Positions 1 to 56,754 of a stretch of DNA of 64,000 nt are shown one piece after another; positions within the stretch are counted from its first letter, which is position 1, and each line of letters begins with the position of its first letter. Both the position numbers and the translations under genes were made by a program. Under the pieces are notes generated by a model. That model ran no database searches. It saw only the letters and a program-made list of their open reading frames with translations, and had not been told where the DNA came from. The DNA comes from Bacilli bacterium. Its GTDB lineage: Bacteria > Bacillota_I > Bacilli_A > RFN20 > CAG-826. The DNA lies in the NCBI GenBank assembly GCA_045628045.1, contig JAZQOV010000003.1, positions 1 to 64,000 of the forward strand, written 5' to 3'.

Positions 1-141
1 CAAGTTTAGAAAACTACATTCAATTAGTAGAAGAGTGGATTCGCTTTTATAATACAGACAGAATAAAAAACAAGAAGTCTTTGACTTCTCGTTCTTTGTA
101 GCTCCTTTTTTATTTTTGTGCACTATTCGGGGTGCACTTCA
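1..141 (+). mobile_element. Right end of an IS3-family (IS150-like) insertion sequence: partial transposase C-terminus (stop at 99-101) plus right terminal inverted repeat ending in CA
   Basis: The frame from nt 3 reads SLENYIQLVEEWIRFYNTDRIKNKKSLTSRSL*, matching the IS3 integrase C-terminal pattern (EYIxFYNxxR). It is followed by TTGTGCACTATTCGGGGTGCACTTCA, typical of IS3/IS150 ends. Truncated by the window start. Confidence 0.7.
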
Positions 142-2161: not shown

Positions 2162-2716
2162 ATGAATGTTACTGAATTAAGACCAGGTTATTATTTCTTA
2201 GATGAAGGCAATCTTTATTTAGTTTTAGACATTCTTCTAAACAAAACAGCCATGAGAAAGATGGTTGCTAAAATTAAGGCAAAAAACATGCGTACAGGCG
2301 CGATTACTGAGCTCGCACGTAACTCTGGCTACGATGTAGAAAAAACATCAATTAGCAAGAAGAAAATGTCATATCTCTATGATGCTGGCGAAACATTAGT
2401 CTTTATGGACAATGATACATTCGATCAGATTGAGATTCAAAAAGCTAAATTAGAATGGGAACTAAACTTCTTAGTTGCCAATTCTGAGATAGATATCGTC
2501 TTCTTTGAAGACGAGATACTTGGTATCTCACTTCCACAAACAGTCGAACTCACAATTGCTGATTGTGAATTAAGTGTTCGTGGTGATACCATTAATAGAG
2601 CCCTTAAAGTGGCTACTTTAGAGACTGGATATAAGATCAAAGTGCCTGAATTTATTAATGCAGGTGACAAAGTTCTTATACGTACAGACACAGGCGATTA
2701 TAACGGTCGCGCATAG
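2162..2716 (+). CDS. efp: Elongation factor P with a non-canonical TAMR loop
   Basis: ELRPG, KNMRTG, YLY..FMDNDTFDQ and ATLETG..VP.FI..GD..RTDTG.Y.GRA motifs. Confidence 0.95.
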   Translation: MNVTELRPGYYFLDEGNLYLVLDILLNKTAMRKMVAKIKAKNMRTGAITELARNSGYDVEKTSISKKKMSYLYDAGETLVFMDNDTFDQIEIQKAKLEWELNFLVANSEIDIVFFEDEILGISLPQTVELTIADCELSVRGDTINRALKVATLETGYKIKVPEFINAGDKVLIRTDTGDYNGRA

Positions 2717-3095: not shown

Positions 3096-3167
3096 TTAAA
3101 AACCTCCATAGATTCTACACTTTTTTGTGTATCCACAATGAAGGCTTGTACTAATTCACAATTAATA

Positions 3168-3188
3168 AAACTACTAATTTTCTACTAA
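3168..3188 (+). repeat. 21-bp motif AAACTACTAA-WTWT-CTACTAA, copy 1
   Basis: AAACTACTAATTTTCTACTAA; near-identical copies at 11636 and 19285. Confidence 0.8.
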
Positions 3189-3202
3189 ATTCTTTACGAA
3201 TG

Positions 3203-3949
3203 CTATTTCATCCATTTGATTTTATTTTCGCATCCGTTTAATAACTTTTTTATGTTACTTCTGTGTCTAAAAATTAAGATCAAAGTCATAACTGTTGTGA
3301 CAATTGCATAATCGAGTCCGACATTTGACCAAAGCTCAACTATTCCAAATCCGATGAAGAATAAGTTGGTGTCAAAACCTGTAAATTTAGAAATAAAGAA
3401 TAAAGCCCAAGCACATAAAGTAGCAACAATTGAACCGATCATTGATGAAATAGATACAATTTTTGTCTTTTTAAGGGTGGCTCCAAATGATAAAAAACCG
3501 ACCACAAACGATAACCAACACGTGAAAAGTGCAAATCCTGAGTAGTTTGAAACAGCCTTTCCACCCCTAAAATCAAGATAAATTGGCCAACAATGCCCAA
3601 TAGTTGCTCCTAAAGGAGCAAAAAGAATAATTAAAGATCCGTTATTGTAAAAATCTTCGCCAAAATTTTTGACCATGATTTTACTTAATCCGGCGAATTT
3701 TAACAAAATCCATACTAAAAACATTGGCAAAATTGTCTTTAAAGCATCCAAAAGAATAGTGACTGCTCCAAGTTTCATGCCGAAAACTCTTCCTACATTT
3801 GTTCCGCCTGAATTTTTAGATCCTTTTTCACGTGGGTCTTCACCCCTAAAGAGTCTACAAAGTATGACTCCAACTGGAATTGAACCAAAAAAATAACCAA
3901 TAATTAATGATGCTAAACAAGCAATTATATTATATAAAATAATATCCAC
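3203..3949 (-). CDS. plsY: Glycerol-3-phosphate acyltransferase PlsY
   Basis: GSIP, GSKNSGGTNVGR, GHCWP..FRGGKAV and RHRSNI motifs; divergent from parE. Confidence 0.93.
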   Translation of the reverse strand: MDIILYNIIACLASLIIGYFFGSIPVGVILCRLFRGEDPREKGSKNSGGTNVGRVFGMKLGAVTILLDALKTILPMFLVWILLKFAGLSKIMVKNFGEDFYNNGSLIILFAPLGATIGHCWPIYLDFRGGKAVSNYSGFALFTCWLSFVVGFLSFGATLKKTKIVSISSMIGSIVATLCAWALFFISKFTGFDTNLFFIGFGIVELWSNVGLDYAIVTTVMTLILIFRHRSNIKKLLNGCENKIKWMK

Positions 3950-4046
3950 TTCAAATCTCCCAATTTACCTAATAATGATACAAAAAAAGTGCTTTAGATT
4001 ACAACAAATATTTTGTTATAATCAAGCATTGAAAGCGAGCAAAACC

Positions 4047-5990
4047 ATGGCAGAAAATATAGCAAAAGCTTCGTATACTGCTGCTGATATCGATATTTTA
4101 GAAGGCCTTGCTGGTGTCAGAAAAAGACCTGCAATGTACATCGGTTCAACCAACTTGACAGGTGTTCATCACCTTGTTTGGGAAATCGTTGATAACGCTG
4201 TCGATGAAGCCCTTAGTGGATACGGAGATACAATCAAAATTACCATTCACAAAGATGGATCTTTAAGCGTTGAAGACGAAGGAAGAGGAATTCCTGTCGA
4301 TATACATCGACAGACTGGAATGCCTGCTGTCCAATTAATATTTACAACACTTCACTCTGGAGGTAAGTTTTCAAACAAAGCTTATACATCTTCTGCTGGT
4401 TTACATGGTGTTGGTTCTGCTGTTACAAATGCTCTTTCAACTTATTGTGATGTTACCGTTTATAAAGCTGGAAAAATCTATCACATTCGTTTCGAAGATG
4501 GTGGAAAATTGTCAGTTCCATTAGAGGTTCTTGGTAATACCAAGAAAAGGGGAACTACTGTTCGCTTTAAACCGGATGACAGAATCTTCTCAACAACTGA
4601 TTTTAAGTTCGATATTATTTCAAACCACATACAAGAAAGTGCGTTCTTATTAAAAGGCGTAAAATTCATACTCTCTGACGAAAGAAGTGGAGAAAAAGTG
4701 GAGTTTTGTTATAAGGACGGTATAAAGGAATATATAAGCAACTTAGAGCAAGGCAAAAACACAATTGGAGACATTATTTCTTTCGAAGGAACCGAAGATT
4801 CTATATCTTTAGATATAGCAATGCAATATGCTACTCAAGATTATGGTGAGAACATTTACTCTTATGCTAATAACGTTAGAACAAGAGATGGCGGAACCCA
4901 CGAACAAGGATTTAGAGCAGGTTTAACTAAAGCAATTAACGATTACGCTGAAGAAAATGGACTTTTAAAAGGAAAAACTAAACTTGAAGGTAGCGATATT
5001 CGTGAAGGTTTAACTGCAATCATTTCTTTAAAAATTCCAGAAGAAAAACTTGAATATGAAGGACAAACCAAACAAAAACTTGGTACTCCTGAAGCTTTAC
5101 CAATCTTAACAAACTTTATATATAATAACTTAAGTTATTATCTTGATGCACATAAAGAGTTTGCAGTCTCAATTATTAAAAAATGCGTTGATGCACAAGC
5201 TACTAGAATTGCAGCACGTAAAGTTCGTGATGAAATGCGCAGCAGAAAAACTATTAAGCAAGACATCGTTCTTTCAGATAAATTAACTCCTGCAGCAAGC
5301 AAAGATTACGATCAAAATGAACTTTTCATTGTTGAAGGTGATTCTGCTGGAGGAACAGCCAAAAAGAGTCGTGATAGATTACATCAAGCAATCTTACCAC
5401 TACGTGGTAAACCACTTAATACTTTTGGCTTAACTATTGATAAAGTTCTTAAAAATGAAGAATGTGCAACGCTCATTAATACAATTGGCGCTGGTGTCAA
5501 AGAAACATTTAATGCTGACAATTCGCACTACGGAAAAGTCATCATCATGACCGATGCTGATACAGATGGTGCACATATTCAAACATTATTAATTACATTT
5601 TTCTACAACTTCATGAAACCACTCATTTTAAAGGGAAAGTTGTTTGTCGCAATGCCACCTCTTTATAGAATCTATAAAGAAGTCAACCACAAACAAGTCT
5701 ATGAATATGCATGGGATGATGAAGGTTTAGAAGAAGCTAAAAAGAGAATCGGATTTGGTTGTAAAGTCAATCGTTACAAGGGTCTTGGAGAAATGAATGA
5801 CGATCAATTAAGAGAGTCAACAATGGATCCAAAATCAAGACAACTTTTGAAGGTCACAATTGAAGATTCTTTACTTGCAGAACAAAGACTTATTACCCTT
5901 ATGGGTAATGATCCACAAACTAGACGTCAATGGATTGAAGAAAATATTAACTTCAACGAAGTTGATTCATTCATCGAGGAGGTAAAATAA
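4047..5990 (+). CDS. parE: DNA topoisomerase IV subunit B
   Basis: GHKL ATPase (EIVDNAVDE, GLHGVG) and TOPRIM (EGDSA, PLRGK, DADTDG). plsY-divergent and ter-proximal context indicates ParE. Probable start ATG 4047 after TGtTATAAT. Confidence 0.9.
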   Translation: MAENIAKASYTAADIDILEGLAGVRKRPAMYIGSTNLTGVHHLVWEIVDNAVDEALSGYGDTIKITIHKDGSLSVEDEGRGIPVDIHRQTGMPAVQLIFTTLHSGGKFSNKAYTSSAGLHGVGSAVTNALSTYCDVTVYKAGKIYHIRFEDGGKLSVPLEVLGNTKKRGTTVRFKPDDRIFSTTDFKFDIISNHIQESAFLLKGVKFILSDERSGEKVEFCYKDGIKEYISNLEQGKNTIGDIISFEGTEDSISLDIAMQYATQDYGENIYSYANNVRTRDGGTHEQGFRAGLTKAINDYAEENGLLKGKTKLEGSDIREGLTAIISLKIPEEKLEYEGQTKQKLGTPEALPILTNFIYNNLSYYLDAHKEFAVSIIKKCVDAQATRIAARKVRDEMRSRKTIKQDIVLSDKLTPAASKDYDQNELFIVEGDSAGGTAKKSRDRLHQAILPLRGKPLNTFGLTIDKVLKNEECATLINTIGAGVKETFNADNSHYGKVIIMTDADTDGAHIQTLLITFFYNFMKPLILKGKLFVAMPPLYRIYKEVNHKQVYEYAWDDEGLEEAKKRIGFGCKVNRYKGLGEMNDDQLRESTMDPKSRQLLKVTIEDSLLAEQRLITLMGNDPQTRRQWIEENINFNEVDSFIEEVK

Positions 5991-5991
5991 T

Positions 5992-8613
5992 ATGGCTAAA
6001 AAAGTTATTACTCCAGTCGAAGAAATAGTCGAAAATATTCACAGCGAAACTCTTGAAGAAATCATGGGTACTCGTTTTGCAACTTACGCAAAATATGTTA
6101 TCCAAGATCGTGCTATTCCAGATGCTCGTGATGGTTTAAAACCAGTTCAAAGACGTATCATCTATGCAATGTACAAAGATGGTAACATCTTTACTCGTCC
6201 AACAAGAAAATGTGCTCACACAGTTGGTGCTGTTATGGGCGAATACCATCCACACGGCGACTCCTCAATCTATGAAGCATTAGTTAGAATGTCACAAGAT
6301 TGGAAGTTAAATAATCCATTAATCGATTTCCAAGGTAATAATGGATCAATCGATGGTGATGGACCAGCAGCTTATCGTTATACAGAATCAAGACTTTCTC
6401 AAATCGCTGAAGAAATGGTTCGTGATATCGACAAAGAAACTGTTGATATGGCTTTAACATTTGATGACTCACAATTTGAGCCAGTTGTTTTGCCTTCAAG
6501 ATTCCCTAATTTACTTGTCAACGGAACCGAAGGTATTGCTGTCGGAATGGCTACTGATATTCCTACACATAACCTCAAAGAGGTTATTGATGCAATTATT
6601 TATCGTATAAATCACGTAAGAGTTGAACCTCTCGATTTAATGCAATTTATTAAGGGTCCAGACTTCCCAAGTGGTGGTGTTATTTACGCTTCAAAAGGCC
6701 TAGAAGAAATGTATACCGATGGCCATGGTCGTATCGAAGTTGCAGCAAAAGCAGAGATTGTTGATACACCAAAGCAAAAAGCAATTATTGTAACAGAAAT
6801 TCCTTACAGAGCTTTAAAGATTCAACTTGTTCATGAAATTGATATGTTAAAACATAGTAATGTTTTACCAGGTATTCAAGAAGTCCGTGATGAATCTGAT
6901 AGAAACGGTATTAGAATCGTTATAGAAATCAAAAAAGAAGCAAAAATTGATGTTATCTACAAATATTTGATGACCAAATCTGGATTAAAACTTTCATATT
7001 CAGCAAACATGGTCGCAATTGTTAATGGTTCACCAAAAACCATGAATTTACTTGATTTCGTAGACAGTTACATCAATCACCAAGTCGACGTTATTACAAG
7101 ACGTTCAACATATGATTTTGCTAAATCAAAAGGTCGTTTAGATATCGTAAATGGCTTAATTAAAGCAATCTCAATTCTTGACCAAGTTGTCGAAGTAATT
7201 CGTGCATCAAAAGACAAACAAGATGCTAAGAAAAACTTGCAAGAAAAGTTTGGTTTTAGTGAAGCTCAAAGTGAAGCAATTGTCATGTTACAACTTTATA
7301 AGTTGTCCAACACGGATATAACCATTTTAGAGAATGAAAAGAAAGCTCTTGAAGAGAACATTGAATTCTTAAATGGAATCCTTGAAGATCGTAATAAACT
7401 TAACCGTTTACTTATCAAAGATTTGAAGACTATTGCGGACAAATATGGCTACGATAGAAAAACTCAAATCATTGAAAAAGAAGAAACAAAACAAATTGAT
7501 GTTCGCGACTTAATCGCTAAAGAAGAAGTAATGGTTGCAGTTTCTAGAGATGGTTACTTCAAACAATCAAGCATCAAATCATTCAAGAGTAGCGGAGACG
7601 ATGCTCTTCCAGGATTAAAGGATGGCGATGCATGCGTATTCTCTGGAAATGTTATGACAACTGATTATTTAATCAGTTTCACTAACTTAGGAAACTTCCT
7701 TTATATTCCAGTTTATGAAATTCCAAGTGAAAAATGGAAAGATGAGGGAAAACACATCAACACAAAGATTTCTTTAAATCCTAATGAAAAAATTGTGCGT
7801 GTATACGCGGTAGAGAAGTTCAGAAATGATTTATTCTTTGTCCTTGTATCAAAACATGGTCAAATTAAACGTTTATCCTTAGATAACTTCTCAGTAATTC
7901 GTTATTCAAAAGCATTAATTTGTATGAAATTATTACAAAATGATGAACTTGCAGATGTTGTGTTCACAAATGGTAATAATGATGTCATGCTATTCACAAG
8001 CGACGGAAACGCGACATTCTATAATGAGAATGAATTACCAAATTCAGGTATGAGAAGTGGCGGTGTTAAAGCTATTTCTAAACTCGGACAAGCAACAATC
8101 GTTAATGCAATTGCTTATGAACACGAAAATGTTGATGGAAAAGTAATGCTAATTACCGACAAAGGCGCAATCAGAATTTATGATCCAGAAAAGACAACAT
8201 TAGTCACTCGTTTAGGCAAGCCATCACAAGTGTTCAAATCATTCAAATCTGAAGAACATAAATTAGTGTACGCTGCTAAGGTTGATACAAGTCTCGAATC
8301 TAATAAAATTAGATTCTTAACCAATCTTAAAGAGATTAAAGAAGTCACTGTAGATGATTATCATTTGACCCCAATGGATTATTATTGTCACGACTCAATT
8401 GATATCGGTAAAAAGAACAAACTTGAGATACCGTTTGTGATGGGAAATGATAGAATTCTCGCCTCGACAATTTCACACATCGTTGAAGTTCCAGAAGTTG
8501 TGAAAGTAGAGGAGCCTATCAGTGAAATTGCCTCTTCTAAAGAAGAAGATCCAATTCCAGAAAAAGGTTACACTCAAATCTCCATCTTTGATGACGACGA
8601 CGAAAATAATTAA
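5992..8613 (+). CDS. parC: DNA topoisomerase IV subunit A
   Basis: DGLKPVQRR, YHPHGD and AAYRYTE active site; C-terminal pinwheel with no evident GyrA-box. Confidence 0.9.
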   Translation: MAKKVITPVEEIVENIHSETLEEIMGTRFATYAKYVIQDRAIPDARDGLKPVQRRIIYAMYKDGNIFTRPTRKCAHTVGAVMGEYHPHGDSSIYEALVRMSQDWKLNNPLIDFQGNNGSIDGDGPAAYRYTESRLSQIAEEMVRDIDKETVDMALTFDDSQFEPVVLPSRFPNLLVNGTEGIAVGMATDIPTHNLKEVIDAIIYRINHVRVEPLDLMQFIKGPDFPSGGVIYASKGLEEMYTDGHGRIEVAAKAEIVDTPKQKAIIVTEIPYRALKIQLVHEIDMLKHSNVLPGIQEVRDESDRNGIRIVIEIKKEAKIDVIYKYLMTKSGLKLSYSANMVAIVNGSPKTMNLLDFVDSYINHQVDVITRRSTYDFAKSKGRLDIVNGLIKAISILDQVVEVIRASKDKQDAKKNLQEKFGFSEAQSEAIVMLQLYKLSNTDITILENEKKALEENIEFLNGILEDRNKLNRLLIKDLKTIADKYGYDRKTQIIEKEETKQIDVRDLIAKEEVMVAVSRDGYFKQSSIKSFKSSGDDALPGLKDGDACVFSGNVMTTDYLISFTNLGNFLYIPVYEIPSEKWKDEGKHINTKISLNPNEKIVRVYAVEKFRNDLFFVLVSKHGQIKRLSLDNFSVIRYSKALICMKLLQNDELADVVFTNGNNDVMLFTSDGNATFYNENELPNSGMRSGGVKAISKLGQATIVNAIAYEHENVDGKVMLITDKGAIRIYDPEKTTLVTRLGKPSQVFKSFKSEEHKLVYAAKVDTSLESNKIRFLTNLKEIKEVTVDDYHLTPMDYYCHDSIDIGKKNKLEIPFVMGNDRILASTISHIVEVPEVVKVEEPISEIASSKEEDPIPEKGYTQISIFDDDDENN

Positions 8614-8616
8614 TAA

Positions 8617-8643
8617 AAAGGCACCTCATTAAGGGGTGCTTTT
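8617..8643 (+). terminator. Intrinsic terminator after parC
   Basis: AAGGCACCTC..GGGGTGCTTT hairpin. Confidence 0.75.
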
Positions 8644-8711
8644 CATATACGCGTTTTATATTTCTCATTAGAAAACTTTTATTTTTCTAATTTTCAATTA
8701 TAATTAGTAAT

Positions 8712-9233
8712 ATGTTAAAAAGATTCATTCCTTTTGCTCATGCTAAATCAATTTATGAAATTGATGTTGGTTTCTACAAAAAACTCAATATTAAATACGT
8801 ATTTGCAGATTTAGATAACACCTTAGATTCATACAAGCAAAAGACTCCATTAGCTAAAGCTAAAGAACTCAAAAACTTGCTAAACAAAAATGGAATTGAA
8901 CTCTTAATAACATCAAATAACACTGGAAAACGTGTTACTGAATATTCTAAAGATTTGGGTGTTAGATATTTCCCATCATTAGGAAAACCGTTCTCAGTAA
9001 AATTAAGAAAATTACTTAAACAATTTAACATCAAAAATGAAGAAGCTATATTAGTAGGAGATCAAATTGTTACAGATGTAAGTTGTGCAAATGGCGCAGG
9101 AATTAAATCTGTATTAACAGAAAAACTAGTTAAAGAAGATCAGCCAACAACAAGGTTTAATAGATTATTCGATACACCTCTTAGGAAGAGGTTAAATAAA
9201 AAGAATTTACTAAAAGATTGGAGAGAATTCTAA
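8712..9233 (+). CDS. yqeG: YqeG family HAD IIIA phosphatase
   Basis: DLDNTL, SNN, KP and VGDQ..TD motifs; upstream of yqeH. Confidence 0.92.
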   Translation: MLKRFIPFAHAKSIYEIDVGFYKKLNIKYVFADLDNTLDSYKQKTPLAKAKELKNLLNKNGIELLITSNNTGKRVTEYSKDLGVRYFPSLGKPFSVKLRKLLKQFNIKNEEAILVGDQIVTDVSCANGAGIKSVLTEKLVKEDQPTTRFNRLFDTPLRKRLNKKNLLKDWREF

Positions 9234-10381
9234 TGGAACAAATTTCAAAAGTAAGAAAATGCTACAAATGTGGCGCAACACTTCAAAGTGAAGATCCTTC
9301 TAAAGAAGGTTACGTTCTTCCTGAAATTTTAGAAAACCCTACACAGAATTTTATATTCTGTCAGAAATGTTTTGAAGAAGAAAGATTCCGTTCTTTATCA
9401 AATGAACCTTATATTGATGAAGAATTCATTAAAATATTGCAAGAAGCAAAAGCAAATAATTGCCTTTTAGTTTACGTAGTAAATCTTTTCTCTTTCGAAA
9501 CTTCATTCTCCAAAGAAGTAATTGATATTATCAAAGATATGAAAATCTTAGTCGTTGGTACTAAGTTTGACCTTCTTCCAGAAAATGCAACTAAAGAACA
9601 CATACAAGACTATGTCGTGCAAAGATTCAGAGTTGCAGGTCTAAAAATCGCTGCAGAAGATGTATTTATTGTATCTTCTAAAGAAGACGATGATGATGCT
9701 GTTCAAGAAACATTAACAAAAATATTTGAACTTAAAAATGCTAAAGACGTTTACGTCATTGGCTCACAAGATGCAGGTAAAACTTCTCTTATTAACTCAT
9801 TCTTAAAAATTTATAAAAATTTATCAAATGGCAATATAGTTACTTGTAACTATAAAGATACTCATCTTAAAGTAATGCAAATTCCTTTAACCAATAAATC
9901 AGCAATGTATGAAACTCCAGGTATTTCCATTACAAACTCAATATTATTCGGGTTAGATGCCAAAACATTACGCGCCATCTACTTAACAAAACCCGTAAAA
10001 CCACACGAAATAACCCTTTCTGAGGGCCATTCACTCTTTATTGGGGGATTAGCTATAGTTGAACTAGTTAAGGGCGATAAAATGGATTTATTATGTTATT
10101 TCCACGATAAAGTCGAACTTAACAAGAATCACGTTAGAGATGTTGAGAGCAAATTTATTAGATTAAATAAATCTGGTGAACTTATTCCTTCATTATCAAA
10201 AATCAAAACAACTCAAGACATGGAAGTTTTCGAAATTTCCTTCAAAACTGATAAGAGCTCTTATAGAGACATCGGTTTCTCAGGTCTTGGTTGGATAAAT
10301 GCAAAGACAAAGAATCAGACTATTAGAGTTTACGTTCCTAAAGGCGTATCAATCTATACATCTAGACCAAAAGTAAAATAA
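9233..10381 (+). CDS. yqeH: YqeH-like circularly permuted GTPase (degenerate G motifs)
   Basis: N-terminal CxxC..CxxC Zn finger, TKFD (G4), GSQDAGKT (G1), ETPG (G3), C-terminal GLGWI..VPKGV. Start at the TAATG overlap with yqeG. Confidence 0.85.
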   Translation: MEQISKVRKCYKCGATLQSEDPSKEGYVLPEILENPTQNFIFCQKCFEEERFRSLSNEPYIDEEFIKILQEAKANNCLLVYVVNLFSFETSFSKEVIDIIKDMKILVVGTKFDLLPENATKEHIQDYVVQRFRVAGLKIAAEDVFIVSSKEDDDDAVQETLTKIFELKNAKDVYVIGSQDAGKTSLINSFLKIYKNLSNGNIVTCNYKDTHLKVMQIPLTNKSAMYETPGISITNSILFGLDAKTLRAIYLTKPVKPHEITLSEGHSLFIGGLAIVELVKGDKMDLLCYFHDKVELNKNHVRDVESKFIRLNKSGELIPSLSKIKTTQDMEVFEISFKTDKSSYRDIGFSGLGWINAKTKNQTIRVYVPKGVSIYTSRPKVK

Positions 10382-10382
10382 A

Positions 10383-11480
10383 ATGGCAAACATTGTTGTT
10401 TTTGGTGGAACATTTGACCCGATTCATAACGGTCATTTAAGAATTAGCGAAGCTGCAAGCAAAAAATTTAATGCTTCTGTAATTTTTGTTCCAGCAAAAT
10501 CACCAAGATGGAAAACTCCAGAAGAGACATCTAATCAAAGATTAGAAATGTTATCTTTAGCCTTAAAAGACGTTTCGTTTAAATATGAAATATGCGACTA
10601 CGAACTTAATTCTAAAGATGAAATAAACTATTCAATTGATACAGTAAAATACTTAAAAAAGATTCATCCTAATGATAATTTGTACTTTTTGATTGGTTTT
10701 GATCAAGTAAATAAATTTAATGATTGGAAAAGCGCTGATGAATTATCAAAAATCGCCAAAATTGTCTATGTAAATAGGCCAGGCTTTATTTTAAATAAAG
10801 AAATTGTTAAAAAATTTGAAATGGTGGACCTTGAATTTTCTGAAAGTGGCGATGTTTCATCTAGTGACATTCGCGAAATGAAATCTATAGATTTACCATT
10901 AAGTGTCATTAAATACATAGAAAAGAACAAACTCTATTTTCTTAAGAAAATAGCTGAAATAGTTCCGGAGAAAAGATTAAATCATTCCATTGAAGTTGCA
11001 AATTTGAGCTTAAAAGTGGCGGAAGTTAATAAATTAGAGCCTCTACATAAGTATTATTTCGCAGCTTTATTGCATGATTTAGGCAAATGTTACGCAAAAG
11101 ACGATGAAAATACTTTAAGTATTATGAAAAAGTACTATAAAGACTTTTTAGATTTACCTTCATTCTCATATCATCAGTTTGTTGGAGAATATTTAGCAAA
11201 AAACAAGTTTGGAGTCGAAGATCCAGAGATTTTAGATGCAATTAAGTATCATTGCACAGGAAAAGCTAATATGTCTAAGCTAGGAATGGTCGTTTATGCA
11301 TGTGACAAAATTGAGCCAACAAGAGATTTTGACTCAACTTGGTTAATTAATGCCTGTTTAAAAGATTGGAAAGAAGGTTTTTTGACAACACTTGAGGATA
11401 ACAGAAAATATTTAACCTCTCACAAGAAAGATATAACAAACAAATTAACAGATGAATGCTTCAATATGTACTTGAAGTAA
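10383..11480 (+). CDS. nadD: NadD nicotinate-nucleotide adenylyltransferase fused to a YqeK HD-domain Ap4A hydrolase
   Basis: FGGTFDPIHNGH and SSSDIR, then RLNHS..LLHD..H..YHCTG..DKIEPTR. Confidence 0.92.
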   Translation: MANIVVFGGTFDPIHNGHLRISEAASKKFNASVIFVPAKSPRWKTPEETSNQRLEMLSLALKDVSFKYEICDYELNSKDEINYSIDTVKYLKKIHPNDNLYFLIGFDQVNKFNDWKSADELSKIAKIVYVNRPGFILNKEIVKKFEMVDLEFSESGDVSSSDIREMKSIDLPLSVIKYIEKNKLYFLKKIAEIVPEKRLNHSIEVANLSLKVAEVNKLEPLHKYYFAALLHDLGKCYAKDDENTLSIMKKYYKDFLDLPSFSYHQFVGEYLAKNKFGVEDPEILDAIKYHCTGKANMSKLGMVVYACDKIEPTRDFDSTWLINACLKDWKEGFLTTLEDNRKYLTSHKKDITNKLTDECFNMYLK

Positions 11481-11508
11481 TTTTTACATTTTTTTATTTT
11501 ATTATTCA

Positions 11509-11536
11509 ACTTCGCATAATGTCTATTATGTTAACT
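11509..11536. other. dif: dif site (XerC/XerD chromosome dimer resolution site)
   Basis: ACTTCGCATAA-TGTCTA-TTATGTTAACT. 11-6-11 layout, close to E. coli (GGTGCGCATAA TGTATA TTATGTTAAAT) and B. subtilis dif. Gene orientation switches here and xerD is 3.7 kb away. Confidence 0.93.
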
Positions 11537-11635
11537 AAATATATAAAAAATACGATTAAATCTAATCTTTTGATAAATTAAAAACACCTAATTCATCTTT
11601 CAAACTAAGATTTATCTCAAATTTATTTTATATTA

Positions 11636-11656
11636 AAACTACTAAATATCTACTAA
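11636..11656 (+). repeat. 21-bp motif, copy 2
   Basis: AAACTACTAAATATCTACTAA, 100 bp from dif; overlaps the permease stop codon. Confidence 0.8.
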
Positions 11657-12444
11657 TTACTTACGCTAAATCCACTTCTATGTTTCTTAACTGGACGACT
11701 GTGTTTTCGTAATAAAGAAGCCAAAAATTCTACAACCAAAACCACAATTATTGCCATCAAACTGTAAGCAAACATGTCTGTTAACTCTGTTGGATTTATT
11801 AATTGTGAATTATGGATCATAGATCCAATGCCACCATTTGTGAATCCTGTTATGATTTCAGCCATAATTTCAATCTTAAAAGCCATTCCGAAAGTTGAAA
11901 TAAGACCAAGAGTTATAAAAGGAATACCTAAAGGTATTTTAATCAGAAATAATTGTTTAAATTTACTTGCACCATCAACTTTAGACGCCGCTATTACTTC
12001 TTGATCAGCGTTTCTAAGTGCGCTTACAATCGATTCATAAAGAATTGGCATTGTCACTGTAAAAACAACAAGTACCGGAGCATTTTTTGCATTCACGAGA
12101 ATTATAAAGACAAAAACAAAAGTTGCTGTTGGAGCGGATTTTAAAAACGTTATAAGAGGCTTGAAAAAGTTATAAAGTTTATCATTATTATGAACCAACA
12201 TTCCTAAAAGGAATGCGATTATAAAAGATAGACCAAAACCAATTAGCAAACGTAAAAAAGAGAACCCTAAATACTTATAGGTAACTTTTTCACCTAATAA
12301 TTCAATCATTCTTTTAGTCGTAACAAATGGATTAGGAAAAACCATTGAATTTCGATCCAAAAATAAAGAAATCAAAAACCATATTCCAACAAGGAATATA
12401 ATTCCAAATAAATAAAACATTTTTTTATTAAGCAATCTCTTCAA
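11653..12444 (-). CDS. NitT/TauT-family ABC transporter permease
   Basis: Multiple TM segments, FPNP, EAA-like motif AASKVDGASK, AE..GGIG. Confidence 0.88.
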   Translation of the reverse strand: MKRLLNKKMFYLFGIIFLVGIWFLISLFLDRNSMVFPNPFVTTKRMIELLGEKVTYKYLGFSFLRLLIGFGLSFIIAFLLGMLVHNNDKLYNFFKPLITFLKSAPTATFVFVFIILVNAKNAPVLVVFTVTMPILYESIVSALRNADQEVIAASKVDGASKFKQLFLIKIPLGIPFITLGLISTFGMAFKIEIMAEIITGFTNGGIGSMIHNSQLINPTELTDMFAYSLMAIIVVLVVEFLASLLRKHSRPVKKHRSGFSVSN

Positions 12445-13375
12445 TTTTTATTTCCTCTAAACCAAATATCGATAAAAATACATTAAGTCCTTCTCTTTCA
12501 CTACCTGAAGAAAAAGTCTCACATTTAATATTCATTCTGTTATTGTTTTGAAACATTTGCTTTGCAATTTCAGGTGTTACACCGAAAGTTACTTCAGGAT
12601 TCAAGCTATTATTCATAAGCGAAACAACATAGTCAGGATTATCATTCATCATAAATATTGATTGTCTTAGATTTCCCAAAATCTTTTCCATTACTGTATT
12701 TTGATCTAGCCCATTTTTCACGAATACTGAAGCTTGAAATATACTTTTACCATCACTTTTTACCTTGTAAAGTTCTTGCAAATCTGCGTATTCATAAGCG
12801 TTTGGAGTTGTAGATAAAACGGTAGATAAAGCAGGTTCTGCTAAAACAACGTAATCCACAGCCTTTCCCTCGTCAGCAAGGTTTTTACCCATCTTTAGAC
12901 ATTTCGCGGTTTCTTGAGCGCTTGAAACGTAATGTAAAGCATTGTTTAACGTGTTCCCATAGACGAAATGAAATAATTTATCTGGAACCGCTCCTTGTTG
13001 AAACGAAACAATATAGTCATTTTCATCCATTACACCATCTTCATCATGTCCAGTAGATGCAATATAGATATTTCCACTTGTGATTGAAGCTAAGAGTTTA
13101 TATGGTAGATTACCTTTTCTTATTGTCTGAATTCCAACATTTGTTGGAAGAACGACTAATTCTGGTTTTCCAGTTGTCATCATAGCAACAATGTTTGAAG
13201 GATCTGAATTTGTCTGAAAATTCTCATATCCACTAAAATACGACATCGCTATTGCAGGAGCTCCAGTAGGAGAAATGATTGTCCAATTTTGGTAATCTAT
13301 ATATTCGCCAAGTTTTTTAGGGGAGCATCCTGCCAATATAATTGGCAACATTACAAATTTAACTATTTTTTTCAT
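12428..13375 (-). CDS. NitT/TauT-type ABC substrate-binding lipoprotein
   Basis: Lipobox LAGC; PTGAPA, VLPTN, GAVPD and LAEP motifs. Confidence 0.8.
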   Translation of the reverse strand: MKKIVKFVMLPIILAGCSPKKLGEYIDYQNWTIISPTGAPAIAMSYFSGYENFQTNSDPSNIVAMMTTGKPELVVLPTNVGIQTIRKGNLPYKLLASITSGNIYIASTGHDEDGVMDENDYIVSFQQGAVPDKLFHFVYGNTLNNALHYVSSAQETAKCLKMGKNLADEGKAVDYVVLAEPALSTVLSTTPNAYEYADLQELYKVKSDGKSIFQASVFVKNGLDQNTVMEKILGNLRQSIFMMNDNPDYVVSLMNNSLNPEVTFGVTPEIAKQMFQNNNRMNIKCETFSSGSEREGLNVFLSIFGLEEIKIEEIA

Positions 13376-13415
13376 ATTTACTGGTTTTACTTTAATAAAA
13401 GTACAATAATAAATA

Positions 13416-13431
13416 TGTGATTTAAATCACG
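13416..13431. promoter_or_regulatory. CRP-type operator TGTGA-N6-TCACG
   Basis: TGTGATTTAAATCACG between the divergent ABC operon and the Crp/Fnr gene. Confidence 0.75.
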
Positions 13432-13438
13432 AATTTAT

Positions 13439-14029
13439 ATGGAAAATAATATTTTACAAAATTTAACAAAAACCGAAAAAGAATTTGTCGTTGTAAAAAC
13501 TGTAGCAAAAAATACAACTCTCTATAGAGAAGGCGAAAAATGTGAATCGATAGCTATAGTCATCTCAGGCGAAATAAAAATCTCATCATTTTCTTTTGAG
13601 GGTGAAGAATTAATTTATAACATTCTTAAAAAGAATGACATCTTTGGAAACAATTTAGTTTTTTCAGATTCACCTTTTTATAAAGGCGATGTTATTGTTA
13701 CAAAAGAAAGCATTATTGCAACCATAAACCGTGATAATTTGCTAAAAATATTACAAAGTAATAAATCATTTTTATTAACATATTTAAACGTGCATTCAAA
13801 CTTTAGTAAAAAGTTAAACTCCACTATTCAACTTTTATCTTTTTCATCTGCAGAAGAAAGATTAACTTTCTTTTTGCACGAAAATGGCAATATTATCGAA
13901 TATAAATCTATCGCAAATCTTGCGACTATTTTACATCTACAAAGAGAGACATTATCAAGACTTCTAACAAAGTTAGAAAAAGAGAACGTGATAAAACGTT
14001 CTCTTCATAAAATTGTTTTACTTAGTTAG
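13439..14029 (+). CDS. Crp/Fnr family transcriptional regulator
   Basis: cNMP-binding-like N-domain; HTH with the RETLSR recognition helix. Confidence 0.92.
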
Positions 14030-15222
14030 TCTTTTAATAATTCAGAAATAGCTGTTCCAATCATCTTTGGAGTTTTCTTTAGACCGAAGTTTTCAAGTAC
14101 TGTTGCACCAATGTCTGCAAAGCACTCTCTTTCTACTAAATATCTACCATTTTTAAATGATTTGCTATAAGCAAGGAATGGAACCTTTTCTCTTGTATGA
14201 TCTGTGCCAACATGTGTCGGATCGTTACCGTGATCTGCTGTAACAATTAACAAATCATCGTCATGAAGAACTTCAATCAATTCGCGTAAGCGAACATCAA
14301 ATTCCTCAAGTGCTTTTCCATAACCCAATGCATTACGTCTATGACCGTATTCAGAATCGAATTCAACTAAGTTGACAAAGCATAAACCTTTGAAATTATG
14401 GTTCTTTGCTTCATCAATTGTTTTATCCATTCCATCCATGTTAGAGACTGTCTTTTGTGTTTTTACAACACCAACTTGGTTAAAGATATCTCCAATTTTT
14501 CCAACACAAGAAACCATAAGGTTATTCTCTTTGAGAATATCCATGACAGTTGTACCGCTTGGTGAAACAGCTAAATCATGTCTATTTGGTGTTCTCTTGA
14601 AACTATCTTTGTCTTTTCCGACGTATGGACGAGCAATAACTCTACCAACGTAATATTCAGGACGTAAACAAATTTCACGAGCAATTTCACAGCATCTGTA
14701 CAATTCTTGCACACCTGTAACTTCTTCGTGTGCAGCAATTTGAAGAACTGAGTCTGCTGAAGTATAAACAATAAGAGAATTATCTCTCATTTGTTCTTCG
14801 CCTAATTCTTTCAGAATTTCAGTTCCGCTTGCAGCGTAATTTCCAATTAATTTATGACCTGTTTTTTCAGCAAGTTCGTCCATAAGTTCCTTTGGAAAAC
14901 CTGTATCTGTGAAAGTTACAAATGGTTTTGTTGTATAAATTCCCATCATTTCCCAGTGGCCAGTCATTGTGTCCTTGCCGTTTGAGGCTTCGCGAAGTCT
15001 TGCGCAATAAGAATGTGGGTGAGAAACTTTTGAAGTTCCCTTGATGTCTGCAAGGTCACCAAGACCAAGTGAATTCATTACTGGAATGTTTAATCCACCG
15101 CATTTTTCTGCAGTATGAACAAATGTATTTGTTCCAACATCTCCAAATTTTGCAGCATCTGGTTCTTCACCAATACCGACTGAGTCAGCAACTATTACGA
15201 ATATTCTCTTGAATTTTTCCAT
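14026..15222 (-). CDS. deoB: Phosphopentomutase
   Basis: [22 protein letters not shown] and [14 protein letters not shown] motifs; start ATG 15222 after GGAG SD. Confidence 0.96.
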
Positions 15223-15253
15223 GGTTTTCTCCAATTCCGGGGGTTATTTTACA

Positions 15254-16132
15254 TTATTTTCGCTTACTATACAAATCATATGCGCTTAAAATGCGCTTGC
15301 TCGATATATTTGTGTAAATTTGTGTAGTCGCAATATTTGTGTGTCCGAGCATTTCTTGCACTGCCCTAAGCTCAGCTCCTTGCTCTAACATATGTGTTGC
15401 AAAGCAATGCCTGAGCGTATGGGGCGAAATATCAACCATAATGTGAGCTTGGACTGCATATTTTTTTACCTGTTTGAAGAAATAAACTCTTGATAAAGGT
15501 TCTCCATAACGGTTAAGAAAAATGAATTCAGAACCTTTATTTTTGTTCTTCAATCTTCCATCATTTAAATAAGTATTTAAATAATCTATAGCATATTCAC
15601 CAATAGGAACAAGTCGTTGTTTATTTCCTTTTCCAACAATTTTGATCGTTCCGTGTTCAAAATCAATTTGTTTTAATGTCAAACTTAATAACTCACTAAT
15701 TCTTAATCCAGAAGAGTACATAATCTCAAGCATGGCTCTATCTCTTTGGCCATCAGGCTTACTAATATCAGGAGCATTAAGCAAAGCTTCCACTTCTTCT
15801 ATTGAGATACAAACAGGTAATTTTTTACTTCCTTTCGGTTTATCAAATGTTTCGCAATCAAAGGAAATATAATGTTCTTTCTCAAGGAATAAAAAGAAAT
15901 TCTTAACAGATGAAATTCTTCTTAAAATTGTTGGAATTGATAACATTTTTTGTGTTTGCAAACGTACAAACTCTTGAATATCAGTTTTTTCTAAATCTTC
16001 AACTTTATTTTTCATAAGAAAAATTGAAAATTGTTTAATATCGTATTCATAGTTCAAAATAGTTTCTCTTGAAACACCTTTTTCAACAAGGAGATACTGA
16101 AAATAAAGTTTACTCGCTTCTTCTAAACTCAT
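15254..16132 (-). CDS. xerD: Tyrosine recombinase XerD (RipX)
   Basis: GLRISE, GKGNKQR, HTLRHCFATH, LGH..TTQIY catalytic set; ripX-drm synteny. Confidence 0.9.
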   Translation of the reverse strand: MSLEEASKLYFQYLLVEKGVSRETILNYEYDIKQFSIFLMKNKVEDLEKTDIQEFVRLQTQKMLSIPTILRRISSVKNFFLFLEKEHYISFDCETFDKPKGSKKLPVCISIEEVEALLNAPDISKPDGQRDRAMLEIMYSSGLRISELLSLTLKQIDFEHGTIKIVGKGNKQRLVPIGEYAIDYLNTYLNDGRLKNKNKGSEFIFLNRYGEPLSRVYFFKQVKKYAVQAHIMVDISPHTLRHCFATHMLEQGAELRAVQEMLGHTNIATTQIYTNISSKRILSAYDLYSKRK

Positions 16133-17319
16133 CTTTTGTTCTCCCTTAAGTGATCACCAGCTGTTTTAAAAACTGATTTATGCATTTGTCTATTAAGCTC
16201 TCCTATAAGGAGTCTTGTTGAATTTTCTTCTTTTATTTGCTCATAATCATCAAAAATCGACATCTGTTTTAATGTTGATTTAGGATTCTTGAGCTGTTGT
16301 AAAGTAACACCAATTAATCTTGTTGGGCGGCCATCATAATTCTCTCTAAGTAAACTTAAAGCGCATTTGTAGATAACATCAAATTCATTAGTCGCTTCTT
16401 CCAAAACTTTTGATCTATTAATAACTTTAAATTCATTGTCCTTCAGGACAATTTGTACAGATTTACCAACTTTGTTTCTTCTTTTAGCGCCTTCTGAAAC
16501 TCTTTTTGAAAGTTGTTCCAAAGGTTTTTCTAGTTCCTCTAAAGAGATTGCATCACTAAATAATGTTGTGGAATGACCGATGGACTTTGGATCAAACGGT
16601 TCAGTGTTAATATTGTCATCACCATTTCCATTTACCCAGTCCTTAATTACAAAGTAAAATTTGCCTAATTGTTTCTTAGTAAGTGGGTCTTCTTTATCGA
16701 TTCTTTCGATTAAATCACCAATTGTTTTAATACCAAGTTCCTTAAGTCTCGGAGCTGTCTTTTTACCGATGCCAAAAAAATCATCAATTGGAAGTGGGCT
16801 TAATTTTTCTTTTGCATCTTTACGTCTAATAATAACTAAGCCATTAGGCTTTTTCATATCAGAACCCATTTTTGCTAAAAATTTTGTAGGTGCAACGCCA
16901 ATTGAACATTTTAAACCAGTTTCCTTGAAAAGTTTTCTTTGTAAATCCCTAAGAAATGTAACTGGATCTTTTTCGTTTTTTAATAATTCAGTGAAATCCG
17001 CATAGCATTCATCAACAGACGCAGGTTCCACTAATGTTGTGTAAGCTTTAATAAAATTAAAGAATTGTTTTGACTTCTCGTGGTAAAATTCAAAATCATC
17101 ATCCAATATAATTGCATCTTTACATTTAAGCAAAGCTTGATAAGTCGGCATTCCAGAACGAACACCTTTTTCGCGAGCAGCGTATGAGCAAGTTGAAACA
17201 ATACCACCCCTACCAGTTCTACCAATGATTACAGGTTTTCCCACTAATGAAGGGTCTTTTAATTCTTCGCATCTAACAAAGAAAGCATTTAAATCAATGT
17301 GAAGAATGATTTTACTCAT
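16129..17319 (-). CDS. dinB: DNA polymerase IV (Y family)
   Basis: HIDLNAFF, SYAAR, SVDE and AKMGSDMKKPNG motifs. Confidence 0.95.
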   Translation of the reverse strand: MSKIILHIDLNAFFVRCEELKDPSLVGKPVIIGRTGRGGIVSTCSYAAREKGVRSGMPTYQALLKCKDAIILDDDFEFYHEKSKQFFNFIKAYTTLVEPASVDECYADFTELLKNEKDPVTFLRDLQRKLFKETGLKCSIGVAPTKFLAKMGSDMKKPNGLVIIRRKDAKEKLSPLPIDDFFGIGKKTAPRLKELGIKTIGDLIERIDKEDPLTKKQLGKFYFVIKDWVNGNGDDNINTEPFDPKSIGHSTTLFSDAISLEELEKPLEQLSKRVSEGAKRRNKVGKSVQIVLKDNEFKVINRSKVLEEATNEFDVIYKCALSLLRENYDGRPTRLIGVTLQQLKNPKSTLKQMSIFDDYEQIKEENSTRLLIGELNRQMHKSVFKTAGDHLRENKR

Positions 17320-17325
17320 ACTTCT

Positions 17326-17354
17326 ATTATATAGAACATTGAATTACTGTTCAA
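17326..17354 (-). promoter_or_regulatory. Sigma-A promoter of dinB-xerD (TTGAAC-17-TATAAT), leaderless
   Basis: -35 at 17349-17354, -10 at 17326-17331, ATG 6 nt downstream. Confidence 0.7.
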
Positions 17355-17376
17355 TATTATGTTAACCAATGTTAAT

Positions 17377-17399
17377 AAAAGAAAAGAGGCCTAAGCCTC
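17377..17399 (-). terminator. Intrinsic terminator after dxs
   Basis: GAGGC-TTAG-GCCTC plus TTTTCTTTT. Confidence 0.75.
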
Positions 17400-17405
17400 A
17401 TTTCA

Positions 17406-19277
17406 TTACTTCTTTAAGTCTTTAATAACATCTTCGACTCTTATTTTATAACGTTCCATTTGTTGATCAATTGTGCCTTGTTTAACAAATTCGTTAGGAA
17501 CGTAATAGGCCGAAATAGAGCCATTAAATTTCTTCTCGAGTAAATATGCCATTGTCATATTAACTAGGCCTCCACGGGTCGAATAAGGGTCATAAATGAC
17601 TATTTTCTTGTAACTGAGGAGAGCATCAATTGCATTTTTGTCGATTGGATTCACATAAATAGCGTTTATAAGCGTACACTTGATATGATTTTGTTCGAGA
17701 TTCTTTTCAAGTTGTCTTAACGCTGGTCCAACTGAAATAATAGCAAGGTCTTTAGAATCATTCTTCAAGAAAATCCATTTACCAAATTCGTGTTTAACTT
17801 CGTTAAATGAAGATTGTTTTTCGACATATGATCTTGGAAGTCTAATAAAGAATGGTCCATGATTTTTGAATGATTCATCATATAAAGCTTTAGCTTCATC
17901 AATTGTAGAAGCCATTGTAACAACTGTTCCAGGAATACTTGCCAGATAAGCTTCATCATAGGTGCCTTGATGTGTTTCGCCATCTGCACCCACAAGTCCA
18001 GCGCGATCAACGAGGAATGTGGCGTTTAAATTATTGCGTGCTAAATCGTGACTGACTTCGTCATAAGCACGTTGTAGGAAGGTAGAATAAACAGAAATTA
18101 TTGGATGAATATCGCTTAAAGATAACGAACTTGCAAGCGTTGCTGCATGTTCTTCGGCTATGCCGACATCTATAACTCTACTAGAATATTTTTTATCGAG
18201 TTGGTCTAAACCAGCACCTTTAATTGTTGCTGGAGAAATTACCACCGCGTTTTTGTGTTTATCAAGTTCCATTCCTGTTATGTCCGCATAAACATGCGAC
18301 CAGGAAATAAAACCTTCATGTTTATTTTTTGGTTTTCCAGTTTTGATATCAAACGGAGAAACTCCATGCCAATAACCAGTTTCGTCTTCTTCAGCATATT
18401 TGTAGCCTTTACCTTTTAAGGTAGAAGCGTGAACAACAACTGATTTCTTTGTGTTTTTTGCTCTTCTAAGTGCTCTTTCGATGCTCTTAATATTGTGTCC
18501 ATCAATTGGTCCTATATAAGCAAAGCCAAGCGTTGTGAAAACGTTTCCATTAATAAGAATTCTCTTAATAAAGTTCTTTACGTTTGCAGTAATTCTAAGA
18601 ATTAATCGACCAATTTTACATTTGCCAAGCACTTTTTGATAACGGTGTTTGAATGTGTTGTATCTTCTAGATGTTGAGAAGTCTTCCAAAAATCTTGAAA
18701 GACCGCCAACAGGTTTTGAAATTGACATACCATTGTCATTAATGACAATTATTACTTTATGATCACTATGAGCAATGTTGTTTAAGCCTTCAATTGCAAG
18801 CCCTGAATTAAGTGCACCATCACCAATAAAAGCAACAACGTCGTAATTTTCTTTATTTAAATCACGAGCAATGGCAAAGCCATTTGCGGCTGATATTGAT
18901 GTCGAAGAATGCCCTGCTTCGTAACAATCATATTTGGATTCGCTCATTTTAAGGAACCCAGACACGCCATCTTGAAGACGTAACTTTGTTAAATCTCTAC
19001 CAGTTAGGATCTTGTGTGTATAACATTGATGTCCAACATCGAAAATAACTTTGTCTTTTGATAAATCAAAAACTCTATGTAAAGCTATTGTAAGTTCAAC
19101 AGATCCAAGGTTGCTTGAAAGATGGCCACCTAAGTTACTCGTAACTTGAATAATTTTCTCTCTTATATCAGAGGCCAATACATCAAGTTCGTTGTAATTT
19201 AAAGAGGCTAAAAACTTTGGATTCTTAATGGAATCTAAATCAATATGTTTAACTTTGTTAACCTTTTTTTCTGCCAT
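17406..19277 (-). CDS. dxs: 1-deoxy-D-xylulose-5-phosphate synthase
   Basis: GGHLSSNLG, DVGHQCY.HK, GHSSTS, GDGAL..ND, IAEEHA and DGETHQG motifs. Confidence 0.96.
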   Translation of the reverse strand: MAEKKVNKVKHIDLDSIKNPKFLASLNYNELDVLASDIREKIIQVTSNLGGHLSSNLGSVELTIALHRVFDLSKDKVIFDVGHQCYTHKILTGRDLTKLRLQDGVSGFLKMSESKYDCYEAGHSSTSISAANGFAIARDLNKENYDVVAFIGDGALNSGLAIEGLNNIAHSDHKVIIVINDNGMSISKPVGGLSRFLEDFSTSRRYNTFKHRYQKVLGKCKIGRLILRITANVKNFIKRILINGNVFTTLGFAYIGPIDGHNIKSIERALRRAKNTKKSVVVHASTLKGKGYKYAEEDETGYWHGVSPFDIKTGKPKNKHEGFISWSHVYADITGMELDKHKNAVVISPATIKGAGLDQLDKKYSSRVIDVGIAEEHAATLASSLSLSDIHPIISVYSTFLQRAYDEVSHDLARNNLNATFLVDRAGLVGADGETHQGTYDEAYLASIPGTVVTMASTIDEAKALYDESFKNHGPFFIRLPRSYVEKQSSFNEVKHEFGKWIFLKNDSKDLAIISVGPALRQLEKNLEQNHIKCTLINAIYVNPIDKNAIDALLSYKKIVIYDPYSTRGGLVNMTMAYLLEKKFNGSISAYYVPNEFVKQGTIDQQMERYKIRVEDVIKDLKK

Positions 19278-19284
19278 TGCTAAT

Positions 19285-19305
19285 AAACTACTAATTATCT
19301 ACTAA
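19285..19305 (+). repeat. 21-bp motif, copy 3
   Basis: AAACTACTAATTATCTACTAA in the xseB-dxs gap. Confidence 0.8.
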
Positions 19306-56731: not shown

Positions 56732-56754
56732 AAAAAACCTTGCTTAGCAAGGTT
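56732..56754 (-). terminator. Terminator after ftsK
   Basis: AACCTTGC-TAA-GCAAGGTT plus T tract. Confidence 0.8.

Follow-up and report, generated by a model that had tools for sequence, protein, structure and literature searches.

Short arrays of an 11-bp direct repeat, clustered around the recombination site dif in a small Bacilli genome and its relatives, form a genuine, conserved element of the chromosome terminus that is probably new. The stretch analysed, hereafter the window, comprises 64,000 nucleotides (positions 1 to 64,000, forward strand, of contig JAZQOV010000003.1 in assembly GCA_045628045.1) and belongs to a genome of 1,071,641 bp in 14 contigs (96% complete, labelled G000), all of which were covered by the scans. 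The candidate binder is a Fic-family protein with a degenerate active site and a predicted winged-helix tail, here termed the dead-Fic protein. In the reading favoured here, the conserved, terminus-clustered sites are bound by this protein, which in its bound state would organise the DNA around dif. Judged from the genomic patterns, binding of the repeat by the dead-Fic protein is very likely and a terminus role for the arrays is likely, so that the two taken together are somewhat more likely than not.

Three copies of the repeat, reported in an earlier note on this DNA, were confirmed by the genome scan. The cores of CTACTAA-N4-CTACTAA lie at 3171-3188, 11639-11656 and 19288-19305 (Table 1), all on the plus strand and each with its AAA flank. 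All three are exact and no more than 9 kb from dif, and the 14 contigs contain no other match with fewer than two mismatches. At up to two mismatches the window holds five matches against 0.52 expected, a number reached by none of 100 shuffles. With a weight matrix trained on relatives the three copies score 30-33, and one further site, at C14:26046, scores 17.8, below the best score on the reversed genome (18.3); this fourth site was accepted because it is syntenic with strong sites in relatives, not because of its score. Contig C14 adjoins the left end of the window by gene order in relatives, across an apparent insertion sequence, which places the fourth site about 39 kb left of dif and in inverted orientation; the earlier description of all copies as lying on the plus strand thus holds inside the window and fails beyond it. 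The start of contig C14 and window positions 1-100 resemble the two ends of an element, assigned by eye to the IS3 family, that sits between nfo and ispG and accounts for the assembly break. The partial copy noted earlier inside deoB does exist, but is attributed to chance, since it scores 13.2 and is retained at up to two mismatches in none of 69 relatives.

The scan of the genome and its relatives proposed in the earlier note found the repeat, with no more than one mismatch, in all 36 genomes of the same genus, mostly as one cluster on one contig. A wider collection was scanned for dif and then for a pair of units at a gap of 100-130 bp, which gave at least 119 stretches; the 80 loci discussed below are the 80 listed of these, mostly Bacilli metagenome bins with one Candidatus Enteromonas. 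The group carrying the dif-linked pair is one that we take to be the order RFN20. An even draw of 151 genomes across the order contained the exact dif-linked pattern in 66, distributed by family as 33/47 (f1), 20/25 (f7), 11/48 (f3), 1/10 (f2), 0/7 (f5) and 0/11 (f8). On long contigs the matches lie near dif (17 of 21 in genome G171, within 42 kb, and 6 of 8 in G071), and in four of four g199 genomes 3-9 relaxed pairs of both orientations lie no more than 300 bp from dif, the remainder of the 3-kb loci being free of them. The matches in G037 and G044, two genomes without the dead-Fic protein, have one mismatch and lie away from dif. No description of this element was found in the open-access literature.

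The unit of the array is an 11-mer, W-T-A-W followed by CTACTAA, present in two to four tandem copies. Its first occurrence is 105-108 bp from dif in 30 loci, 114-118 bp in 32 and 125-129 bp in 12, accounting for 74 of the 80 loci in bands 11 bp apart, and the same bands appear in loci picked by the motif alone. When independent assemblies are compared, dif and the repeat stand out as conserved islands separated by spacers that are unlike but almost the same in length (73 versus 72 bp). A DnaA box lies no more than 60 bp upstream of the dif-linked repeat in 65 of the 80 loci, against a background of 117 in 16,000 random 45-bp windows, and 47 boxes among the 80 loci start at +86 to +90 from dif. 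This box has been lost at copy 2 in the present genome and in its close relatives G021 and G028, the repeat being kept. A lone PemK/MazF-like gene (about 180 amino acids) ends at the dif-linked array in 28 of the 80 loci (for example L132:10143-10685), with no antitoxin seen adjacent; it was dropped as a candidate binder, being absent from this genome.

Satellite arrays recur at about -39, -20, -9, -3 and +5 to +9 kb from dif. A site in the same orientation 3-10 kb to the right of dif was counted 30 times in the 80 loci; it shifts between gaps as gene order changes, its neighbouring genes differ, and none of the 30 has a DnaA box within 45 bp. The site of copy 1 is also occupied in 25 of the 80 loci, and boxes similar to those of copy 1 occur there in relatives, although a box with at most one mismatch lies within 45 bp in only five of the 25, plus five reverse boxes. 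Orientation is biased but not strict, most far-left sites pointing one way and right-hand sites the other, and the arrays of G171 within 42 kb of dif alternate. The earlier proposal of a head-to-tail protein-binding site with an 11-bp period is supported, the site being conserved, confined to the terminus and not restricted to a single set of promoters. A rule that the repeat always follows a gene stop in one sense was dropped when exceptions were found, as was a KOPS-like role, single heptamers being few and mildly skewed (77 versus 47).

The site at -39 kb lies in the promoter of the dead-Fic gene, directly upstream of a -35/-10 pair. This promoter array, which ends 7-10 bp before the -35 box, is the most widely kept site of all and is present also in families f4 and f5. 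A first pass found the pair of units at 38 of 46 homologues with full upstream DNA; after a recheck, in which three start codons were corrected and two genes running off contigs were set aside, it was found at 41 of 44, the remaining three having weaker arrays. Further genera have the promoter pair in 18 of 24 homologues (inverted in 5 of the 18; two of the genes have mis-called starts). As a control, a pair stands upstream of only 3 of the 798 genes of this genome, namely the dead-Fic gene, dxs and one other. In G048 the site has stayed with the dead-Fic gene although lepA has moved away. Of the 151 genomes drawn, 125 encode the protein, and the exact dif module occurs in 65 of these 125 versus 1 of the 26 without it; in that single genome the match is not at the genome's own dif. 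Most families of the order carry the gene once, as part of their core genome, and among 300 genomes drawn from the class full-length homologues are confined to this order. Two distant orthologues from another family, at the same position between lepA and hemW (L401:9585-10433 and L402:10303-11166), measure about 285 amino acids, their Fic body being eroded, and a clear promoter array was found at neither.

The structure model of the dead-Fic protein (predicted local distance difference test score, pLDDT, 84) consists of a Fic body, a low-confidence linker (35-166 amino acids) and a predicted C-terminal winged helix. Its best structural matches are CbFic2 and SoFic (for SoFic, Z 23.9, root-mean-square deviation 4.0, 289 aligned), and the tail resembles the winged helices of TrmBL2 (Z 9.1, root-mean-square deviation 2.3, 76 aligned) and CadC (Z about 9). 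The catalytic His is present in none of 40 sequences compared, both Gly and both Arg of the motif are also lost, and an acidic loop takes the place of GNGR. Identity is 63% in the tail versus 30% in the Fic body, and residues Y426, E427, T428, R430, T431 and M433 of the recognition helix are present in 40 of 40 sequences, the DNA motif being likewise nearly invariant. Two related genomes (G267 L386 and G288 L382; L404-L416) have the helix variant YETARKTM, and their arrays have a relaxed last base, CTACTAG or CTACTAT; this is possibly a case of covariation between protein and site. Some Fic toxins modify topoisomerases. A complex prediction of the Fic body with the N-terminal part of ParE scored 0.01, which speaks neither for nor against a contact.

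Class II Fic proteins that bear a helix-turn-helix at their C terminus (CccR, CbFic2 and SoFic) share with the dead-Fic protein the combination of a Fic body and a predicted DNA-binding tail. CccR, whose Fic motif is intact, binds its own promoter through its tail, represses it and AMPylates FtsZ (PMC9755527), and CbFic2 dimerises on DNA (PMC10628234). The known proteins keep HPFxxGNGRxxR and AMPylate targets, whereas the motif is lost in the protein described here, and CccR binds an inverted repeat, whereas the present sites are direct repeats at the terminus.

Of the possibilities raised in the earlier note, a terminus-organising site is retained as the best reading. In the mechanism proposed, the winged-helix tail would bind each heptamer, one per unit, stacking head to tail on one face of the DNA, and arrays would be bridged by dimers of the Fic body on their long linkers. 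The dif-linked array, partnered by DnaA as a bending protein, would act as accessory DNA, like cer and psi; the satellite arrays would hold the terminus together, as matS sites do; and the promoter array would set the level of the dead-Fic protein itself. The bound protein may thereby organise the DNA at dif for the last steps of chromosome separation, carried out by Xer, topoisomerase IV or the divisome. The gene and the site in its promoter are retained in families f4 and f5 without the dif module, which suggests that autoregulation is the older function and that the terminus role was added or lost. A more specific version, possible but doubtful, is that a lineage without condensin, and mostly without ParB, domesticated a Fic enzyme as a terminus hub, in which the dead enzyme covers the phased arrays next to dif and, with DnaA bound 87 bp from dif, licenses the resolution of chromosome dimers or decatenation.

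As to the segregation machinery, the genome encodes XerC, XerD and an FtsK whose gamma domain is weak. ScpB was found above the cut-off in none of 61 genomes of the order, with a positive control in 9 of 14. This fits the gene order on contig C7 of this genome (L216:5066-6729), where rnc directly neighbours ftsY and smc does not intervene. ParB was not found in this genome, nor in 31 of the 36 genus genomes, and is strong in f2 and f5, families mostly without dif arrays.

Several observations weigh against a terminus role for the dead-Fic protein and its arrays. The link between protein and site is drawn from genomic data only, and the 80 loci were picked for a gap of 100-130 bp, so that other spacings could not show. 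The exact dif module is missing from 60 of the 125 genomes that encode the protein, and the dif module of the present genome has no DnaA box. Co-occurrence counts follow families and therefore represent few independent events, which makes the Fisher value calculated from them too strong; three f5 genomes (G047, G052 and G057) have the gene and the promoter site and no dif-adjacent array, so that the terminus role is not universal; and f8 lacks ScpB, ParB and arrays alike, so that arrays are not a required substitute. Given an FtsK that has a gamma domain, an accessory system at dif may be unnecessary. Finally, G028 is an exception to clustering, 7 of its 12 exact matches being far from dif or on another contig. 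The remote arrays of G028 (L060, L061 and L261; C1:542-593 kb) follow GC-rich palindromes that resemble terminator hairpins or the Noc-binding site; no ParB/Noc domain was found in that genome.

The element works like a terminus organiser or a Xer accessory system, yet falls outside each known family with which it was compared. MatP/matS of Escherichia coli and ZapT of Caulobacter each combine a few copies of one terminus-confined site with one dedicated protein and loose orientation, and the sites described here are also confined to the terminus region, G028 excepted. However, matS is a palindrome spread over hundreds of kb, whereas the present element is a direct-repeat array within about 40 kb with one copy phased to dif, and the candidate protein is unrelated to MatP and ZapT. 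XerD sites that unload SMC (XDS) differ in that ScpB was not found above the cut-off here in the 61 genomes, so that an SMC-ScpAB complex to be unloaded is probably lacking. At cer (with PepA and ArgR) and psi (with PepA and ArcA), protein sites lie within about 180 bp on one side of the XerC/XerD core, and PepA, a moonlighting enzyme, is the architectural protein of the Xer synapse, binds its own promoter and has a global regulator as its partner (PMC2655662). Candidate accessory sites at fixed spacing beside a XerC/XerD core are likewise found here. Unlike at cer and psi, the core here is a chromosomal dif, FtsK is present, the candidate proteins are the dead-Fic winged-helix protein and DnaA, and satellites without a core lie up to 40 kb away. 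ArgR had no match among the small soluble proteins; PepA was not searched for. BldC offers a precedent for the stacking of winged-helix units along direct repeats whose number varies (PMC5859096), but is a 68-residue MerR-like transcription factor; by eye, no such protein, and no MerR or Xis-like protein, was seen among the short open reading frames here.

The screen for other binders covered 436 small soluble proteins, with 377 proteins of more than 340 amino acids and membrane proteins outside it, and gave no match to Tus or to the MatP or MerR families. A standalone RQC winged-helix protein (C2:105987) is present in 32 of the 36 genus genomes and in none of 24 outside the genus, also when searched by profile, and was rejected as the binder because the arrays extend to other families; its gene (L195:5987-6400) adjoins nifU. 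A Rex-like winged helix (C8:3638) was set aside as well, being present in the array-poor families f5 and f6 and not found with that query in f3 and f7. By eye, this protein of 145 amino acids (L220:3638-4075) resembles the DNA-binding domain of Rex but lacks the part that binds NADH; it is conserved in f1, f5 and f6.

The strongest rival to the favoured reading, although unlikely, keeps the same binder and makes it a transcription regulator only, acting on its own operon and on dxs, dnaG and yqeG, with the terminus copies titrating it and so tying its free level to replication. Such a protein would explain why the array just before the -35 box is the most widely kept site, f4 and f5 included, and it would behave as CccR does in repressing itself (PMC9755527); copy 3 moreover abuts the start of dxs, and the -20 kb site abuts dnaG. 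Copies 1 and 2, however, stand at convergent gene ends, the satellites move between genes, and gene control needs neither a fixed helical distance from dif nor dense clusters there. A location upstream of genes, as in an OmpR regulon, which the earlier note had named as evidence against a terminus site, holds in part, for the copy in the candidate binder's own promoter, and no OmpR regulator was found, the OmpR-type domain (PF00486) having no match in this 96% complete genome.

Less likely still is a DnaA-control locus at the terminus, similar to datA or DARS or formed by a low-affinity DnaA array, with the repeats serving as weak DnaA sites or as sites for a helper. E. coli datA and DARS lie outside oriC (PMC13220808), the 11-bp unit can be read as a DnaA box with two mismatches, and the box upstream of 65 of the 80 dif modules, with its 47 starts at +86 to +90, points in this direction. 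Yet no box lies within 45 bp at any of the 30 right-hand or 10 parC satellites, nor at the dif of this genome, and the invariant letters of the repeat are those that depart from the DnaA consensus. A box-plus-trio element of its own marks the true origin, which lies with dnaA on contig C1, and the terminus repeat was not found there. The published unwinding rule (at least three in-register trios no more than 16 bp from the box; PMC8287927) holds in only 8 of the 65 box-bearing loci.

Ranked below this is the idea that a polar replication fork trap evolved independently for a third time, the dead-Fic protein serving as terminator; such a system would share with RTP/Ter of Bacillus subtilis and Tus/Ter of E. 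coli the placement of sites around the terminus, an orientation bias and a site at the protein's own gene. The inversion of most far-left sites relative to right-hand sites, the inverted arrays that flank dif in f7 and a terminator gene under its own site, which is the tus pattern (PMC10331603), would suit such a trap, and a Ter-like trap had been suggested earlier. Against it, RTP is missing (PF02334, no match at E ≤ 1 in this genome, with a positive B. subtilis control), and the sites are phased to dif and of mixed orientation, without two opposed groups. In 7 of the 80 loci the -9 and -3 kb sites face each other; a strict trap would halt the two forks about 5 kb from one another and leave parE-parC unreplicated. 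Arrays alternate in G171, either side of dif carries sites of both orientations in g199, wrongly oriented sites occur 230-330 kb out along one arm in G028, and the promoter array is inverted in 5 of the 18 positives from further genera.

The other suggestion of the earlier note, arm-type sites, here taken as those of a Tn916- or lambda-like heterobivalent tyrosine recombinase with dif as the core, is largely refuted and very improbable despite the fixed helical spacing from a recombination core, since the only three tyrosine recombinases (open frames of 299-316 amino acids) have Pfam core-binding domains starting at residues 7-13 and no N-terminal arm-binding domain was found in them, no core site lies near the satellites and there are no deletion scars. 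The genes that the earlier note expected beside copies 2 and 3 have left no such scars: xseB and dxs lie 3-55 bp apart in each of the 29 relatives measured for both genes, and the gene maps of the 80 loci show no ABC ATPase cluster beside the permease. A putative likeness of the repeat to the DR2 site of Tn916 integrase, put forward in the earlier note, would speak for such sites.

Table 1 Repeat copies, dif and associated features (window positions unless a contig is named)
Feature	Position	Strand	Remarks
Copy 1, two CTACTAA units with 11-bp period, between convergent ends of yneF and plsY	3168..3188	+	8.4 kb left of dif
Two 9-mers resembling DnaA boxes, upstream of copy 1	3129-3137 (1 mismatch), 3152-3160 (2 mismatches)	+	
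parE-parC (topoisomerase IV), between copy 1 and dif	3975..8613	+	context
dif, XerC and XerD halves with 6-bp spacer	11509..11536	+	GC-skew and gene-direction switch
CGAT-N3-ATC(G) palindrome, weakly conserved, 18-29 bp right of dif	11553..11563	.	low information content
Copy 2, dif-linked array	11636..11656	+	first unit 104 bp from dif core
Partial copy inside deoB	14133..14147	+	attributed to chance, outside the system
XerD-type recombinase, 292 amino acids, no arm-binding domain	15254..16132	-	context
Copy 3 with degenerate third unit (19277-19283), between xseB and dxs start	19277..19305	+	7.8 kb right of dif
FtsK/SpoIIIE; domains alpha, ATPase and weak gamma	56753..59350	-	context
Dead-Fic protein with predicted winged-helix tail, 459 amino acids, between lepA and hemW	G000 C14:24609-25988		outside the window

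Some further features of the region were recorded. The 14 bp to the right of dif (window 11553-11566), which include the weak palindrome, recur upstream of dnaA (C1:85099), and a 10-bp core of this stretch occurs eight times in all in this genome; in some genomes the palindrome belongs to a terminator-like hairpin. ABC permease and substrate-binding genes occupy window positions 11653-13375, in a block that is inverted or absent in some related loci. Two elongation factor P paralogues are encoded in this 1.07-Mb genome (window 2162-2716 and L218:2727-3284), and sporulation genes (spo0A, spoIVB and a sigma factor) lie no more than 10 kb from dif in L076, L079, L108, L123 and L142.

Sequence-specific terminus systems are known from few lineages, and the element described here bears on how small-genome Bacilli without condensin finish chromosome segregation. 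Should the favoured reading hold, a pseudo-Fic protein would gain a housekeeping role on DNA. That a DnaA box stands beside dif at a set helical position points to a connection of initiation with termination that has gone unrecognised. If the proposal of a terminus hub acting with DnaA is true, no earlier case would be known of a dif on a chromosome that has accessory DNA and links the initiator physically and directly to termination.

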